Source: a plasmid
Reading direction: 5' to 3' (one strand)
Sequence record: NZ_CP102863.1
DNA: 8,713 bases
The notes below the pieces were generated by a model that made no database searches, had not been told where the DNA came from, and saw only the letters and a program-made list of their open reading frames with translations. The translations under genes and the position numbers were made by a program. Positions 2,590 to 8,232 of the stretch are shown here, one piece after another (within the stretch, counting starts at the first letter, position 1; every line of letters starts with the position of its first letter).

Positions 2590-3129
2590 TCATTTATTAT
2601 TTCGCTCACCAAACAAGCGTTGCCAAAAAGTTGCAGGCTTATCAGCACTATTTTCAACCGCTGTTGGCACTCCTGAGGCCCGTGCATGGATTTGCTCGTC
2701 TTTTTCTTTGGAATCACTCTCACGCTCATTTTTCGGTTTTTCAAGCTGCTTGAGCTTTTGTGCGGTCATCAACTGAAGCTGTTGTGACTGATCGAGCAAC
2801 TTTTGCAATTTTTCTATTTGCTGGTCTTTGGCGGCAAACTGTTTGTCACGATCTGCTCTCAAATAAGCGATTTCGTCTTTCATAGTAGCAATAATGTCAA
2901 TATTATTTTTGCCGCTATTTGTCGACGTTTGTCGATCTTTTTGGTGGTTATTTGGTGGCAAAGTCTTTGCTACTTTATTACGTATAATCCTTTCTAAATC
3001 GGAGCTGATCAGATTTCGTCCCTGGCTATCTTTTTGTCGCTTATTTGCTGGTAGTCTTTGGTAGTGATACTGGATTGTCTGTTTGCTAACACCCAGCTCA
3101 TCCGCAAGCTCTTTGACTGTTTTGCTCAT
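2590..3129 (-). CDS. HTH DNA-binding protein with a long Q/K/E-rich coiled-coil, 179 aa. DUF536 / plasmid 'RepB'-like replication-associated protein of lactic-acid-bacterium plasmids
   Basis: AGGAAA RBS sits before ATG 3129 on the minus strand. The N-terminus MSKTVKELADELGVSKQTIQYHYQRL is a typical HTH. The centre is heptad-like (KLQKLLDQSQQLQLMTAQKLKQLEK). Gene order (convergent with and downstream of repA) matches lactococcal and lactobacillal theta replicons from memory. Confidence 0.75.
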   Translation of the reverse strand: MSKTVKELADELGVSKQTIQYHYQRLPANKRQKDSQGRNLISSDLERIIRNKVAKTLPPNNHQKDRQTSTNSGKNNIDIIATMKDEIAYLRADRDKQFAAKDQQIEKLQKLLDQSQQLQLMTAQKLKQLEKPKNERESDSKEKDEQIHARASGVPTAVENSADKPATFWQRLFGERNNK

Positions 3130-3492: not shown

Positions 3493-3960
3493 ATGATTTT
3501 TATCACCCTGTCAGCTCAACGAGCGACACTTCTAAATTACCCTAATGAACCTTCAGTAAAATGGGTTGGTTATTCGTTCAATGCAACTGATTCGGAACTC
3601 TGGGATCATAATAAAGGAATTTGGCGTTTAGGCGCGAGAGTCAATTCTGAGGAATATGTTGCGCTTTGTTTTGAAGGAGAGGTAAAACTAGTCGCGCACT
3701 TTTCTGGCGTGGCTCTTTATCCTAATTCATCAAGATACTTCTTTGTAGGCGGTCGCCCCTTAACTAAAGGCGAAGCTCCATACGACAAATGGATTGGACA
3801 GCGTGTTAAAGGTACTAGAAATCCGATTCGTTATGAATATGATCCAGACATTGACGGGTGGAAATGGAAAACAGATAAGGGTGTGGCAAAAGTTTTGGAT
3901 GACTTACAAGCCAAATACCCAAGAAGAGATGAGTTCCTTAATCATTTACAGAATATTTAG
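3493..3960 (+). CDS. Hypothetical protein, 155 aa. No family recognised
   Basis: Clean ORF with an AAAGG-type RBS-like sequence upstream and a strong terminator 37 bp downstream. A (TA)n AT-rich promoter-like region lies at 3300-3480. The sequence is not low-complexity (W/Y/G-rich, globular). Confidence 0.65.
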   Translation: MIFITLSAQRATLLNYPNEPSVKWVGYSFNATDSELWDHNKGIWRLGARVNSEEYVALCFEGEVKLVAHFSGVALYPNSSRYFFVGGRPLTKGEAPYDKWIGQRVKGTRNPIRYEYDPDIDGWKWKTDKGVAKVLDDLQAKYPRRDEFLNHLQNI

Positions 3961-3996
3961 CATGCTTTGCAGGTCAAAGTTAAACGATCATTTTGA

Positions 3997-4027
3997 GGCA
4001 GTTACCGAATGGGTAACTGCCTTTTTT
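3997..4027 (+). terminator. Rho-independent terminator (ggcagttacc-GAATG-ggtaactgcc followed by TTTTTT)
   Basis: Perfect 10-bp stem, 5-nt loop and 6-T run, read directly. Confidence 0.85.
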
Positions 4028-4269
4028 GGGGGGGAGTTTAAGAAAGGTTCTATACTTCCCTCCTAGAGCTTGATTTTGGGAATTTACTCTTGATTATCCT
4101 GATTTTTGCTAGATACCAAACAGACTCTAAGAAGTTGTTTGATGTCTTCAATGCAGTACTTTACGATTGGCTAATATGCTGATCAATGATTTCATTCATT
4201 AAGTCAGAGATATCTGTTTCTAAAGCAATAGATAATTTATACAGAGTTTCTAGGCTAGGCAGATTATTA

Positions 4270-4322
4270 GGTAGATTGTAAAATTAATCCGAACGCTGTT
4301 CGGATTAATTTTACAATCTACC
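4270..4322. promoter_or_regulatory. Perfect 53-bp palindrome: 25-bp arms GGTAGATTGTAAAATTAATCCGAAC / GTTCGGATTAATTTTACAATCTACC around a 3-nt centre GCT. It lies 64 bp upstream of the defence-like operon
   Basis: The reverse complement of 4270-4294 equals 4298-4322 exactly (checked base by base). There is no T-run after it, so it is not a canonical terminator. Confidence 0.7.
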
Positions 4323-4385
4323 ATATATAGAACAATTTGATCCATAGTATACTATTAAAGATATAAATTAACGAGGTGCTTAATT

Positions 4386-5402
4386 ATGAAACCATTGCAT
4401 AATGCGTCAGCAACTCAAGCCGGGTTCCATTTTCAGGACGTGGCTGCTATCTACTTTTTTATTTCAGCTATCCAGGACTTAGACAAAGTAACACCTGAAG
4501 GTGAGGAGGATTTTGTTCTTTCGTTTAAAGATGGGAGCAAATCATTTTATCAGGCCAAAGAAGTTCAGAATGCATATAGCCCTATATCATCAAAGAGGTT
4601 CAAAGAAACATTAAGAACTTTACTGGATGACTTGAACAACAACGAAAAGGTGAAAGAAATAGGCCTAGTTACAAATTCATACTATCCTGTTTGCAATACG
4701 GATCTGACATCAACCTTCACTCCTACCTACATGAAAAAGTTATACGCTTCGTTATCACCCAAACTTCAAGAAACAATTCAAGAAAAGTTAGAGGACGTAG
4801 ATCCCAATACAGACATAACCAAATTAACAAATTTCTCTATTACTAAGCTTGCTTATGAAGGTGATGATCCGGATTCCAAACTTTATCAGCTAAACAAAAA
4901 AGCGGCTGAAGTTCTTGGAAGAGCCAAAATAAACGATTCTCATCATCGTCAAATAATTGATGAATGGAACTCAATTTTCAAAGAGGCTGATGAAGATCCT
5001 AAAAAAGCAATCAGCACAAGAGAATTCACGGCTCATACCGAGGCTATCGTTCTTGATTATTTTAATTTTAATGAATTTTTCAATTTATTTAGAATTAACC
5101 CATCAAATCAAACGTACATACAGGAGCAGTATTCCCAATATTTAAGAAGCCTTGCTCTTGATATACCCATTCACGGTCACATCACCATGGATTTTAACGA
5201 ATACCAGCAGAACCACTTGAAGGATCAATACACCAATTTACTGATAAACTTTGTTAATAAAGAGGCTATCAAAGAACGCGACGAGCTCGGATTAAAGAAG
5301 CGCTCTGAAGATCTGGACATCGCAAAGCTAATCATTTGGATAGTTGTTATAAACAACACTATTCTCAAACATATTGAGGAGGCGTTTGGCCTTGAAGATT
5401 AA
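4386..5402 (+). CDS. 338-aa protein of unknown function. Candidate effector (LmuA-like; possible degenerate PD-(D/E)xK-like N-terminal region: EGEEDFVLSFKDGSKSFYQAKE)
   Basis: GAGGTG RBS sits 9 nt upstream of ATG 4386. It overlaps the downstream ATPase gene (translational coupling). The product assignment is inference from gene context and acidic/lysine motifs, not a recognised match. Confidence 0.8.
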   Translation: MKPLHNASATQAGFHFQDVAAIYFFISAIQDLDKVTPEGEEDFVLSFKDGSKSFYQAKEVQNAYSPISSKRFKETLRTLLDDLNNNEKVKEIGLVTNSYYPVCNTDLTSTFTPTYMKKLYASLSPKLQETIQEKLEDVDPNTDITKLTNFSITKLAYEGDDPDSKLYQLNKKAAEVLGRAKINDSHHRQIIDEWNSIFKEADEDPKKAISTREFTAHTEAIVLDYFNFNEFFNLFRINPSNQTYIQEQYSQYLRSLALDIPIHGHITMDFNEYQQNHLKDQYTNLLINFVNKEAIKERDELGLKKRSEDLDIAKLIIWIVVINNTILKHIEEAFGLED

Positions 5403-6825
5403 TTCAATTTCTATAAACGGGAAGAAATTTCAATTTTCGAAACAATCAACGCTAATCTACAGTACAGTGAACGGAACCGGAAAAACCACTCTATTGCGAC
5501 TTTTGCTTTATGGACTGGGGTATCCAATTCCAGCGACAAAGGGGATCGATTTTTCTTCACTAAGTATTAAAGTTTCACTTACCAAAGATAACGGAGAGCA
5601 ATTAACTTTGGACCGGTCAGATAAAATAATTACAATATCTCAAAATAGCACATCAAGCACAGAATTCCATGTCATAGAAAATGCTCTCGAAATCCAATCA
5701 ATCATCTTTGATATTACAGATCCAAAAATCCTTGAAAATCTTCTTGGCCTATATTATTTTGATCAGGAAAAGGGATGGACTTTGCTTAATCGTGGAATTG
5801 TTATTGGCAGTATTAGATTCAAGATTGAATCTTTTGTTGAGGGCTTGAGTTCAAGGGAATTATTCAATCTTGATACTTCTATAGAAGATCTGACTGATCA
5901 AAAAAGAGAATATAGGCAATTACGCAGGATCTTATCAATTAAGGATAAATCCGCTTCAAATTCACAAAGTATAAATTGGTCTCCTATCGATCAGATCAAT
6001 AATAAGCTTAGATCACTTGAAACAGAAATCAGAAGATATAAATCAGTGGAAGCTCAATACAGATCGATTAACTTGAATAACGAAAACCTATTTAAGTTTA
6101 TTGAAGGCTTAAACCTAAAACTAAGAACATCAGACGGTGTCATTCCCATTAAAAGAAAAAACATTGTTGAACGTAACGTCAATCGCAATCTCTTAAATGC
6201 ACAGATCACCCGACAGAAACGTAAAATTTTACAATTAAGTGAAGAGAGAGAACGTCTCCAAAAAGAACTCAGCCAAAGCTTATTAGGCATCAGTGTAGAT
6301 TCACAATTGAAAAGGTTCAATATAGCGATATCTAGTTTAGACATTACAACAGAAGATCTAGACAAAATTGATAAACAATACGTTGATAAAATTAAAAAGC
6401 TCAAGCAAAAGCGAATTAAAATATTAAACAATAGCCAAATAGCGGAAAATCTTTATGAAAGAATCTTAAAGTTTTGTAATCACCTTAATGTGGGTAAGTC
6501 CATTGATCCAGAGAGTTCATTTCTTTGGACTTCTAACTTAAGACGCTTTAGTGGCGCACAACTTCACTTGATAGTATTCGCTTATCGAATGGCATTACTT
6601 CAGGAAGTACAAGAACATTTTAGCGTTACAATACCAATCATTCTGGATTCACCTATGACAGGTGAGTTAGATAAAGAGAATGCTTCTCTAATGTTCTCAT
6701 TGATTCACAAATACTTTCCTAAAAACCAGATCATTGTAGCATCCATCTTTAGGTTGCCATTAAATGACGATGATTTAATGCCTTTAAATACAATTACGCT
6801 AACGAAGGGGAGTATAGTTTCCTAG
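5392..6825 (+). CDS. SMC/Rad50-like ABC ATPase with a coiled-coil insert (LmuB-like), about 477 aa from TTG 5392. The ORF track starts at TTG 5374 and gives 483 aa
   Basis: Walker A VNGTGKTT (nt ~5467-5490). A charged heptad-rich middle region follows (residues ~170-370). The ABC-signature-like FSGAQ lies at nt 6547-6561. Walker B IILDSP lies at nt ~6640-6657, followed by a D-loop-like M. The N-terminus (M)KINSISINGKKF...LLLYGLG resembles LmuB/DUF3732-type heads from memory. GAGGAGG at 5376-5382 sits 9 nt before the in-frame TTG 5392. Confidence 0.88.
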   Translation: MKINSISINGKKFQFSKQSTLIYSTVNGTGKTTLLRLLLYGLGYPIPATKGIDFSSLSIKVSLTKDNGEQLTLDRSDKIITISQNSTSSTEFHVIENALEIQSIIFDITDPKILENLLGLYYFDQEKGWTLLNRGIVIGSIRFKIESFVEGLSSRELFNLDTSIEDLTDQKREYRQLRRILSIKDKSASNSQSINWSPIDQINNKLRSLETEIRRYKSVEAQYRSINLNNENLFKFIEGLNLKLRTSDGVIPIKRKNIVERNVNRNLLNAQITRQKRKILQLSEERERLQKELSQSLLGISVDSQLKRFNIAISSLDITTEDLDKIDKQYVDKIKKLKQKRIKILNNSQIAENLYERILKFCNHLNVGKSIDPESSFLWTSNLRRFSGAQLHLIVFAYRMALLQEVQEHFSVTIPIILDSPMTGELDKENASLMFSLIHKYFPKNQIIVASIFRLPLNDDDLMPLNTITLTKGSIVS

Positions 6826-6874
6826 TTTCCTATGAAAAAACGTCTATAGCAGTGTTAAGGAGAGAGCTGATTTT

Positions 6875-7264
6875 TTGATAAAACGTGAGCCAAATCGTAA
6901 AAGACCGATTCGCAAAACCGCACGATTCACCGCGACAGAACTGGCGGAAATCAAGCGTCAACAGTTTGAAGCTGGTTATAACCAATTTAGCGCTTTTGCT
7001 CGCTACCGTTTGTTTAATAGCCCGATTTTCGATGTCAGTTTGATTGATGGCAACGCCATGCTTCCGCGTATTCGTAGGGTTGGCGACCAGCTAAATCAGA
7101 TTACACACGCCGTCAATTTGACTGGCACGGTCAGTAAGGAGCAAGTTGTGACCGTCAAGGAACTAGTTGGGCAGTTGTCAAAAGTACTCAAGGAGCATCT
7201 TTTACAGGACGCTGAATTTGAAGCATCACTCGCACGATCGCTCAACCCGTCTAACAAAAAATAA
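6875..7264 (+). CDS. mobC: Plasmid mobilisation relaxosome accessory protein MobC family, 129 aa, TTG start
   Basis: AGGAGA RBS upstream. The core RFTATELAEIKRQQFEAGYNQFSAFARYRLFN...IRRVGDQLNQITHAVNLTG matches the MobC-family pattern (R.T.EE...AGLS.S.Y.R...LNQIA+..N) from memory. No relaxase gene follows. Confidence 0.75.
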   Translation: MIKREPNRKRPIRKTARFTATELAEIKRQQFEAGYNQFSAFARYRLFNSPIFDVSLIDGNAMLPRIRRVGDQLNQITHAVNLTGTVSKEQVVTVKELVGQLSKVLKEHLLQDAEFEASLARSLNPSNKK

Positions 7265-7273
7265 CCTAGGGGT

Positions 7274-7337
7274 TTGGGGGCAGCGCCCCCAAGATACAAA
7301 AGGGGAGTAGGCTGATCAGCCTACTCCCCTTTTTTTG
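7274..7337. terminator. Two hairpins after mobC: TTGGGGGCAGCGCCCCCAA (7274-7292) and a 15-bp perfect stem aggggagtaggctga/tcagcctactcccct (7301-7330) with TTTTTTT. Strong bidirectional intrinsic terminator
   Basis: Perfect palindromes read directly, with an A-run before and a T-run after. Confidence 0.85.
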
Positions 7338-7338
7338 A

Positions 7339-7379
7339 GCAAGTGTGCACCCACTTGCAAATCTCGCGACAGTAGAAAA
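7339..7379. repeat. Left 41-bp inverted repeat GCAAGTGTGCACCCACTTGCAAATCTCGCGACAGTAGAAAA (partner at 8192-8232)
   Basis: The reverse complement of 8192-8232 matches with 2-3 mismatches. Each copy contains an internal hairpin (caagtg...cacttg). Confidence 0.7.
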
Positions 7380-7513: not shown

Positions 7514-7765
7514 TTGGCCATCGTGGTACTATATTTGATAAGCGTTCATAAAAGCGAGGTCATAGGATTATTGAAAACCAAGTTTAAAAATCTGTTTGTC
7601 CGGCAAATAGCTATTAAAAGCCCCGGAAGGCCGAAGTTATCTCAAAATATAACGGCTGAAATCAAAAGCCTGGCTCAGGCTCACCCTAAGTGGTCCCTGC
7701 AGACCCTGGCCCGTGCTGTTGGTGTTAGTAAAACCAGCGTCTATAACGTTTTAAATAAAAGGTGA
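7514..7765 (+). pseudogene. 83-aa fragment resembling the N-terminal HTH of an IS transposase (GRPKLSQNITAEIKSLAQAHPKWSLQTLARAVGVSKTSVYNVLNKR; IS630/IS481/IS30-like HTH pattern). No catalytic domain follows
   Basis: Motif GRPK...S...LA...GVS..TVY.VL. The ORF stops at 7765 and no downstream frame continues. The start at ATG 7514 is doubtful. Confidence 0.45.
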
Positions 7766-7880: not shown

Positions 7881-7974
7881 GAGGTTTTCCTGAGCCACGC
7901 AAGCGAAGCGCGCTAGGGCAAGCCTAAGGCGCGCAGGCGGAGCCGGAGTTAAATGTGGCGAAGCCACACCTTTT
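7881..7974 (+). repeat. GC-rich structured element copy B, a direct repeat of 847-950
   Basis: About 85 bp near-identical core (7890-7972 vs 856-948), same orientation. Confidence 0.75.
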
Positions 7975-8191: not shown

Positions 8192-8232
8192 TTTTCTACT
8201 GTCGCGAGATTTGCAAGTGGACGTCCACTTGC
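8192..8232. repeat. Right 41-bp inverted repeat TTTTCTACTGTCGCGAGATTTGCAAGTGGACGTCCACTTGC. Contains the perfect 18-bp palindrome CAAGTGGACGTCCACTTG
   Basis: Reverse complement of 7339-7379 with 2-3 mismatches. Confidence 0.7.

Follow-up and report, generated by a model that had tools for sequence, protein, structure and literature searches.

The window analysed here is a complete plasmid of 8713 base pairs (bp) from Lacticaseibacillus paracasei (NZ_CP102863.1), a replicon of the Rep3 type that carries a two-gene candidate defence operon on its plus strand at 4386-6825. Gene 1 (4386-5402), which encodes an LmuA-like effector of 338 amino acids (aa), starts with ATG, ends with TAA at 5400-5402 and is preceded by a Shine-Dalgarno-like GAGGTG (4373-4378) located 7 nucleotides (nt) 5' of the start codon. 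Gene 2 encodes a short LmuB-like ATPase of the SMC/Rad50 type. Its longest open reading frame (ORF) spans 5374-6825, from a TTG at 5374 that overlaps a GAGGAGG ribosome-binding site (5376-5382) within the 3' end of gene 1. Another TTG, at 5392, follows the GAGGAGG after a 9-nt spacer, and the match of the protein to its PADLOC profile starts only at the eighth residue of the long ORF. Thus, gene 2 most likely starts at TTG 5392 (5392-6825), yields a 477-aa product and overlaps gene 1 by 11 nt. The same 11-nt overlap is present in the closest relatives (loci L001, L004 and L084). A preliminary description, made from the sequence alone, had already proposed two overlapping ORFs on the same strand, the stop codon of gene 1 at 5400-5402 and, inside the end of gene 1, the GAGGAGG site and likely TTG start of gene 2, and all of these were confirmed.

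The gene family is already catalogued as the PADLOC candidate PDC-M46. Both proteins match its hidden Markov models (HMMs; PDC-M46A and PDC-M46B, PADLOC-DB v2.0.0) nearly end to end, gene 1 with an E value of 4.8e-66 (residues 6-333 against positions 5-327 of the 330 in the profile) and gene 2 with 4.5e-126 (residues 8-471 against positions 2-471 of 483), and the locus is a member of this family. The preliminary description had suggested a PADLOC scan and AlphaFold2 models of the monomers with Foldseek searches as checks. The scan returned PDC-M46A and PDC-M46B and, for gene 2, also the LmuB models (E 6.8e-22 to 1e-6), and the predicted structures show an LmuB fold for gene 2 and a Cap4/LmuA nuclease fold for gene 1. 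An unclassified Abi-type system, which it had offered as an alternative, is not needed, and no Abi model was matched in PADLOC.

A Cap4-type nuclease and a short LmuB-like ATPase

Gene 1 had initially been described as a protein of no recognisable family with a possible Cap4-like PD-(D/E)xK nuclease core. The first statement does not hold: residues 8-143 (4407-4814) match the Pfam family PF14130 (Cap4_nuclease) with 26.9 bits against a gathering score of 26.2, and the NCBI name of the protein is 'dsDNA nuclease domain-containing protein'. The second is borne out by this match together with the invariant residues and the Cap4 and LmuA fold matches given below. PF14130 is matched by 25 of the 74 members of the gene 1 family. 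Across these 74 aligned members, no variation is seen at E38 (4497-4499), D42 (4509-4511), Q56, K58 or N97, and next to none at G13 and Q17; E38, D42 and the segment Q56-A-K58 (4551-4559) form the catalytic core (4497-4559). Of 74 partner proteins encoded 5' of the ATPase gene in genomic loci, 73 show the Q17/E38/D42/Q56/K58 pattern. The catalytic lysine has been validated in two LmuA proteins, as K59 in that of Bacillus cellulasensis (BcLmuA) and K57 in that of Vibrio cholerae (VcLmuA) (10.1101/2025.06.23.660979), and K58 of gene 1 occupies about the same sequence position, a comparison by position rather than by aligned residues.

The gene 1 family evolves fast. A word-indexed protein search returned a single non-identical relative, and an exhaustive HMMER search returned 287 cluster representatives of about 330-350 aa. 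For both proteins of the operon, sequence matches in the PDB needed family profiles rather than single sequences: phmmer with the single sequence of gene 1 or gene 2 against the PDB sequences gave only coiled-coil noise, and in an NCBIfam scan neither protein scored above cut-off. The gene 1 family profile matched LmuA (9ux7_C, E 5.8e-4) and HamA (8zue_A, E 3.2e-5) through the N-terminal core. In the AlphaFold2 model (predicted local distance difference test score (pLDDT) 92.2, predicted template modelling score (pTM) 0.89), an alpha/beta nuclease domain is followed by an all-helical C-terminal domain (residues ~160-338, 4863-5399), which is presumed to serve LmuB docking and oligomerisation. 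Foldseek aligned the model with BcLmuA (9ux7_C) over 340 columns (template modelling scores 0.53/0.57) and with Cap4 over the nuclease domain only (~229 columns). Together, these results show that the product of gene 1 is a DNA nuclease of the Cap4/DUF4297 PD-(D/E)xK type, whose active site is intact and invariant across the family and whose C-terminal domain is helical.

Cap4 of CBASS and HamA of Hachiman share the DUF4297/Cap4 PD-(D/E)xK fold and motif with gene 1. Since their nuclease domains (Cap4, 6vm5 and 6vm6; HamA, 8zue) are strong fold matches and 8zue_A is also matched by the family profile, gene 1 could be thought of as a Cap4 or HamA-type effector working within one of these systems. 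Those systems, however, rely on a SAVED sensor, a cyclic-nucleotide synthase or HamB, whereas here the partner or regulator is an SMC-like ATPase. Neither Pfam nor PADLOC detected a SAVED or CARF domain, the window contains no CD-NTase or HamB helicase, and it is the SMC-like ATPase that consistently accompanies the nuclease, both in the window and at 79 related loci (see below). Moreover, the Cap4 and HamA matches span the nuclease domain only (~180-230 residues), whereas BcLmuA aligns further. Gene content therefore refutes a CBASS or Hachiman assignment, to which we attach next to no probability.

Gene 2 has the layout of an ABC ATPase head that is split by a coiled coil; residue numbers below refer to the 477-aa protein and conservation to 42 homologues. 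The Walker A motif or P-loop N27-G-T-G-K31-T-T (5470-5490) has N27, G30 and K31 invariant, and the ABC signature F-S-G-A-Q at residues 386-390 (6547-6561) is conserved at S387 (90%), G388 (100%) and A389 (97%). The Walker B motif P-I-I-L-D419-S420-P421 (6634-6654) is deviant, with Ser in place of the catalytic Glu, and D419 and S420 are invariant. These three motifs had been read correctly before. The H-loop region Q446-I-I-V-A-S-I452 (6727-6747) contains no His; Q446 is conserved at 100%, and A450, S451 and I452 each at 90% or more. The Q-loop carries a family-specific extension, D124-Q-E-K-G-W-T-L-L-N-R-G135 (5761-5796), which is 100% conserved except at E126 (88%). LmuB of B. cellulasensis (BcLmuB) has 'CMDSF' as its Walker B, 'NQSFFSI' aligned with the H-loop region and 'YIDQDDSW' aligned with the Q-loop extension, and the Walker B consensus of short Lamassu is hhhhD[Q/S/T/E] (PMC12663957). 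The active site of gene 2 is shown to be of the slow-hydrolysis type, and we infer for the D124-G135 extension only a candidate role as a DNA-end contact or blocking loop.

In the AlphaFold2 model of gene 2 (pLDDT 82, pTM 0.75), the two halves of the head are separated by a coiled coil with antiparallel helices (residues 156-364, 5857-6483), whose length of ~210 aa is close to the ~200 aa estimated earlier and, by the hhalign register, about 50 aa shorter than that of BcLmuB. Its apex is a small beta-hairpin (residues 243-252, 6118-6147). At the aligned apex position BcLmuB has 'ECQYCH', a CxxC zinc hook, whereas no CxxC was found in any of the 42 aligned homologues, nor within residues 180-330 of the ATPase at any of 83 loci.

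Sequence and structure both lead from gene 2 to LmuB. The profile of the 42 homologues gave only one significant match in the PDB that was not due to coiled coil, LmuB 9ux7_A (562 aa, E 1.4e-13), with which it is colinear (1-470 against 1-546), and hhalign aligned gene 2 with BcLmuB over 422 columns (98.1% probability, E 9.5e-14). In the reciprocal search, BcLmuB, represented by 546 of its 562 residues as reconstructed from the profile alignment, matched its own PADLOC model with 8.5e-190, the other LmuB sub-models with 1e-51 to 1e-5 and PDC-M46B with 1.4e-17. Since this last value falls within the spread of the sub-models, several accepted LmuB subfamilies are as far from BcLmuB as PDC-M46B is, or further. 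Foldseek ranked 9ux7_A first (1.6e-11) and Bacillus subtilis YydD second, followed by four type II LmuB chains and, at lower ranks, by condensin, Rad50, AriA and RecF. The resemblance of the head to DUF3732 that had been claimed could not be substantiated, as PF12532 did not match gene 2 at E<=1. The BcLmuB control was unmatched too, and therefore the missing DUF3732 match carries no weight; we rejected DUF3732 as a criterion for Lamassu, the reference protein itself being unmatched in this Pfam release. Together, our results demonstrate that gene 2 encodes an SMC/Rad50-like ABC ATPase that is a full-length homologue of type I LmuB, with a D-S Walker B and no H-loop His. A word-indexed search found at least 1399 members of its family, nearly all of them unannotated and tightly held in length (~470-495 aa).

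The second-ranked fold match, PDB 9a6c_A, is an integrative model of B. subtilis YydD-YydB and stands between type I and type II LmuB, which suggests that YydD is another LmuB-like protein with a different partner.

A coiled-coil-split ABC head could also belong to a housekeeping repair ATPase of the RecF/RecN/SbcC/Rad50 kind, next to which gene 1 would be an unrelated neighbour. A weak match to Pfam SMC_N (24 bits against a gathering score of 40) and the Rad50, SMC and RecF heads among the lower fold matches are in keeping with this idea, and SbcCD/Mre11-Rad50 (fold matches 1e-7 to 1e-5), which resembles gene 2 in its split head and its DNA-end biology, has been proposed as the evolutionary origin of Lamassu (PMC12663957). 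However, LmuB ranks above all repair ATPases by both sequence profile and fold, the repair equivalogs of NCBIfam score far below their cut-offs, and the NCBIfam SMC models reach 27 bits against cut-offs above 560. Compared with SbcCD, gene 2 lacks the zinc hook, its coiled coil is far shorter, no SbcD/Mre11 phosphoesterase partner is encoded in the window, the partner is instead a PD-(D/E)xK nuclease to which it is obligately coupled, and the distribution is sporadic and mobile. A placement of the ATPase in the RecF/RecN/SbcC family, which the preliminary description had named as the outcome that would speak against it, did not occur, and the housekeeping explanation is effectively refuted.

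Pairing and distribution of the two genes

A scan of one genome per species identified relatives of the ATPase in 212 species; 80 loci were fetched and, with three plasmid loci, make up the set of 83. A gene 1 homologue lies directly 5' of the ATPase gene and on the same strand in 79 of the 83, and in 73 of these it is full length (310-369 aa, median 336). The four loci without an upstream partner are contig ends or apparently disrupted copies. The upstream gene overlaps the ATPase ORF in 75 of the 79 paired loci, by exactly 4 nt (ATGA or GTGA) in 62. No conserved downstream or third gene was found in the window or at the 83 loci, where the downstream genes vary from locus to locus, and hence there is no LmuC. 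These results show that the pairing of gene 1 and gene 2 is essentially obligate across phyla and mobile elements and that the two genes are translationally coupled.

At some loci the gene 1 homologue is split into two ORFs and the ATPase is intact (NZ_CP042394.1, 2243-3438, 281 + 112 aa; L085, 9005-10004, 172 + 140 aa). Decay or frameshifting may affect the nuclease in a minority of copies.

The pair occurs in Lactobacillales, Clostridia, Negativicutes, Bacteroidota, Fibrobacterota, Alphaproteobacteria and Spirochaetota, in hosts that come mostly from gut, rumen and fermented food. Most of the 212 species matches are chromosomal contigs. The pair is also carried by seven plasmids of lactic acid bacteria, such as pLC22R, at 28-39% identity, and it lies within an Oenococcus oeni prophage, between the RusA and terminase genes (L088/L089, 8892-11434). 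One locus places it beside integrases on an integrative element, and another in a defence island together with HamA plus a helicase and with an AAA_15 protein. The ATPase alone matches one Ruminococcus phage record (PV036414.1, 2060-3448), in which two hypothetical proteins are annotated under the match. The O. oeni prophage and the Ruminococcus phage thus hold phage-borne copies of a putative anti-phage system.

One possible explanation for a plasmid-borne copy is that its main role concerns plasmid biology, either the exclusion of competing plasmids in the manner of DdmABC or an addiction module that kills plasmid-free cells. The operon occupies a cargo slot of a small plasmid that in a sister plasmid holds an SMC-like candidate (DUF2326/PDC-M68B), and DdmABC, a Lamassu of type II, targets both plasmids and phages (10.1101/2025.06.23.660979, PMC11707656). 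However, a plasmid-specific role fits poorly because the pair is also found on chromosomes, as are most of the species matches, and in the O. oeni prophage, and the ATPase in a phage genome. Moreover, no labile, antitoxin-like component is evident, and a role in plasmid biology would be compatible with an anti-phage function. We therefore regard it as quite improbable that plasmid biology is what the pair mainly serves.

Relation to Lamassu and a possible mode of action

For both gene products, the best structural counterpart over the full length comes from a single solved complex, the type I LmuAB of B. cellulasensis NIO-1130 (PDB 9ux7/9ux8), a clade S short Lamassu that lost LmuC. The order of the two genes is the same, with the nuclease first. 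BcLmuA (315 aa) and gene 1 (338 aa) both consist of an N-terminal Cap4 nuclease and a helical C-terminal domain, and BcLmuB and gene 2 are colinear from head through coiled coil to head, both with a D-S Walker B and without an H-loop His. The two ATPases differ in length (562 against 477 aa), with the 85 aa lost mostly from the coiled coil (~50 aa) and from head loops; in the apex, where BcLmuB has ECQYCH and gene 2 no CxxC; and in the KGWTLLNRG extension, which is invariant only in the gene 2 family. Both proteins of the operon had been called much shorter than usual. This is right for the ATPase, given the 562 aa of BcLmuB and the average of ~600 aa for 'short' LmuB (PMC12663957), and wrong for gene 1, which is longer than BcLmuA.

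Of the features that characterise type I Lamassu, the operon has an ATPase that is LmuB-like in fold and sequence and deviant in its Walker B, an LmuA of the Cap4 type with its catalytic Lys, the A-then-B order and the lack of LmuC, and it is without the LmuB size of ~560-600 aa, the CxxC zinc hook and DUF3732. Because the number of hooks (0-2) varies among short Lamassu (PMC12663957), the missing hook marks a variant rather than an exclusion. Taken together, our results suggest that the operon belongs to the Lamassu family as a compact, hookless system of type I architecture (LmuA-LmuB without LmuC), a reading that we consider probable and from which its function is inferred by analogy. It is not a categorically new system but a compact relative of Lamassu. 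The minimal or divergent type I Lamassu of the preliminary description agrees with this, LmuB 9ux7_A being the best match of gene 2 by both profile and fold and PDC-M46B being recovered by BcLmuB in the reciprocal search.

Type II Lamassu, also known as DdmABC or ABC-3C (V. cholerae LmuACB, 9uxh and 9nyg; Salmonella enterica, 9hqu and 9hqx), likewise combines an LmuB of deviant Walker B with a Cap4-type LmuA, and VcLmuB is hookless like gene 2 (PMC12663957). Its chains are significant fold matches of the two gene products. However, type II requires the middle component LmuC, which this locus lacks, and its LmuB proteins are 570-880 aa long. The C-terminal domain of type II LmuA is of another type, and the alignment with gene 1 covers essentially the nuclease domain only. 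A Lamassu system from a plasmid of lactic acid bacteria, in that case lactococcal, has been shown to be active (PMC11381338).

Several observations weigh against membership in Lamassu. Identity to BcLmuB and BcLmuA is only ~15-17%, the apex of gene 2 is without the CxxC hook of BcLmuB, and gene 1 matches the PADLOC LmuA model PDLC00241 only weakly (E 0.002). The C-terminal domain of BcLmuA, which docks on the LmuB coiled coil, is of the ABC-3C CTD12 type; that of gene 1 was unmatched by the Pfam C-terminal domain families of ABC-3C/LmuA, and its docking on the coiled coil is assumed. A chromosomal copy in L. pantheris has no obvious defence neighbours. Palindromic DNA has been reported as the trigger of the V. 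cholerae Lamassu DdmABC (PMC11707656), and if such DNA were the trigger here, the 63-bp palindrome next to the operon on its own plasmid (described below) would be awkward. Finally, PDC-M46 is an unpublished PADLOC candidate: we found no description, mechanism or phenotype of it in the literature, and the sole paper found mentions it as an unpublished candidate that in one case duplicates a Lamassu call (PMC11811056).

It is conceivable from some of these points that PDC-M46 constitutes a separate defence system, linked to Lamassu by remote ancestry only and with another trigger or activation logic, in which the ATPase might, for example, sense a phage protein or act as an antitoxin-like inhibitor instead of sensing DNA ends. 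Its own PADLOC HMMs fit far better than those of LmuA and LmuB (4.8e-66 against 0.002 for gene 1, 4.5e-126 against 6.8e-22 for gene 2), the hook is missing and the coiled coil ~50 aa shorter, the invariant Q-loop extension DQEKGWTLLNRG is peculiar to this family, and no Pfam model of a C-terminal domain matches that of gene 1. However, the same solved type I LmuAB complex holds the closest full-length structural counterparts of both partners, the deviant Walker B and H-loop are common to gene 2 and BcLmuB, the reciprocal HMM distance lies within the spread of accepted LmuB sub-models, and a hookless LmuB is already known from the V. cholerae Lamassu (PMC12663957). We consider a separate system unlikely.

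We then propose, for the compact Lamassu, a mechanistic model by analogy with the BcLmuAB and VcLmuACB complexes, which served as templates (10.1101/2025.06.23.660979; PMC12663957). The ATPase dimer would silence a single nuclease monomer, which it would bind at the coiled coils by way of the monomer's C-terminal domain. Upon infection by a phage or entry of a foreign plasmid, the ATPase head may bind free or abnormal DNA ends or hairpins that arise from their replication, and this binding, with slow ATP turnover, would release the nuclease. The freed nuclease could then oligomerise through its C-terminal domain, pair its Cap4 domains and cut DNA non-specifically, and the resulting degradation would abort the infection and sacrifice the cell. 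Since gene 2 has no CxxC zinc hook, dimerisation must, in such a model, rest on the apex hairpin, on coiled-coil contacts or on both.

At 477 aa, gene 2 is the shortest Lamassu-type ATPase so far, and the operon, if active, would be the smallest Lamassu-type system, with 815 aa in its two proteins taken together and neither hook nor LmuC. It is tempting to speculate further that PDC-M46 is the most reduced SMC-based immune complex known, in which a 477-aa ATPase without zinc hook, hinge or kleisin-like LmuC dimerises through a new beta-hairpin apex and/or its coiled coil and controls a Cap4 nuclease; we put this forward tentatively, as a possibility rather than an expectation. If it were true, PDC-M46 would form a distinct clade outside the current 19-clade classification of Lamassu and provide a minimal parts list for DNA-end sensing and nuclease licensing by an SMC-like protein.

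The system is widespread in bacteria of the gut, the rumen and food fermentation and moves on plasmids, prophages and integrative elements, and it could serve as a minimal model for the sequestration and release of a nuclease by an SMC-like ATPase and for the dimerisation of a hookless LmuB. In this plasmid it forms a natural, food-grade cassette of 2.5 kb, which, if it protects against phages, would be of use in lactic acid starter and probiotic strains, those of Lacticaseibacillus included. For annotation, PDC-M46 could join the Lamassu family, and between several hundred and a few thousand proteins that are labelled hypothetical at present would then be named.

The plasmid and the borders of the cassette

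Within the plasmid, the borders of the cassette are sharp and mosaic. The left junction is a near-perfect palindrome of 63 bp (4265-4327) with 30-nt arms and a 3-nt loop, which ends 59 nt 5' of gene 1. Homology with large L. paracasei plasmids ends at 4267, at the left edge of the palindrome, and cuts the gene of a 65-aa helix-turn-helix (HTH) regulator. A 61-bp core of the palindrome recurs at up to 100% identity in ~900-1000 plasmids of lactic acid bacteria, often in several copies and mainly in unannotated intergenic DNA. A DNA search of PLSDB with the module matched this 61-bp palindrome only, the gene cassette being absent there at the DNA level. The palindrome is a boundary marker whose functional role is only putative, and it looks like a recombination or insertion junction, either similar to a miniature inverted-repeat transposable element or made of paired insertion sequence ends. 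A promoter scan 5' of gene 1 found no convincing sigma-70 promoter above the shuffled expectation, and a terminator scan detected none after gene 2.

The right junction is a short spacer 3' of gene 2 (6826-6873), in which homology with sister plasmids resumes at 6859-6873, at the ribosome-binding site and start of a MobC/NikA-like gene (6875-7264, assigned by Pfam). The slot just 5' of this gene is a swappable cargo site. In the L. paracasei sister plasmid NZ_CP081854.1 the same slot (3790-5517) holds the gene of a 575-aa DUF2326 protein that matches PDC-M68B (6e-30) and, weakly, LmuB (5.8e-9). It is another SMC-like candidate for a defence gene, borne by a shared backbone.

Between the replication region and the cassette lies a 155-aa ORF (3493-3960, plus strand) with no Pfam, NCBIfam or PADLOC family. 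We considered and rejected it as a candidate LmuC, since it occurs elsewhere without the module and has no counterpart at the related loci: thirteen large L. paracasei plasmids (38-74 kb) that are without the module carry it at 97% identity, and distant relatives (~37%) occur on Leuconostoc and actinobacterial plasmids.

The plasmid location recognised at the outset is supported by a database record of a protein identical to that of gene 1 from an L. paracasei plasmid contig of 8713 bp, by a Rep3 initiator gene (1290-2069, Pfam), by 22-bp iterons and by the MobC/NikA-like gene. The iterons (ATAGGTCACCAAAAAGCACACG) stand in ~4.5 tandem copies at 1106-1237, immediately 5' of the initiator gene, and with Rep3 they constitute a typical theta-type origin. 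A DUF536/HTH gene, also assigned by Pfam, lies on the minus strand at 2590-3129. A G+C-rich direct duplication of ~95 bp (847-939 and 7881-7974, 94-100% identical) flanks the replication region. A search against Rfam gave no match for it and no RNA family anywhere in the window. Directly 3' of the MobC-like gene is a perfect 36-bp palindrome (7298-7333), followed by a pair of 41-nt inverted repeats (7339-7379 and 8192-8232, 90% complementary) that encloses ~0.8 kb with an 83-aa HTH ORF (7514-7765). This palindrome and repeat region could be an oriT or the ends of a mobile element.

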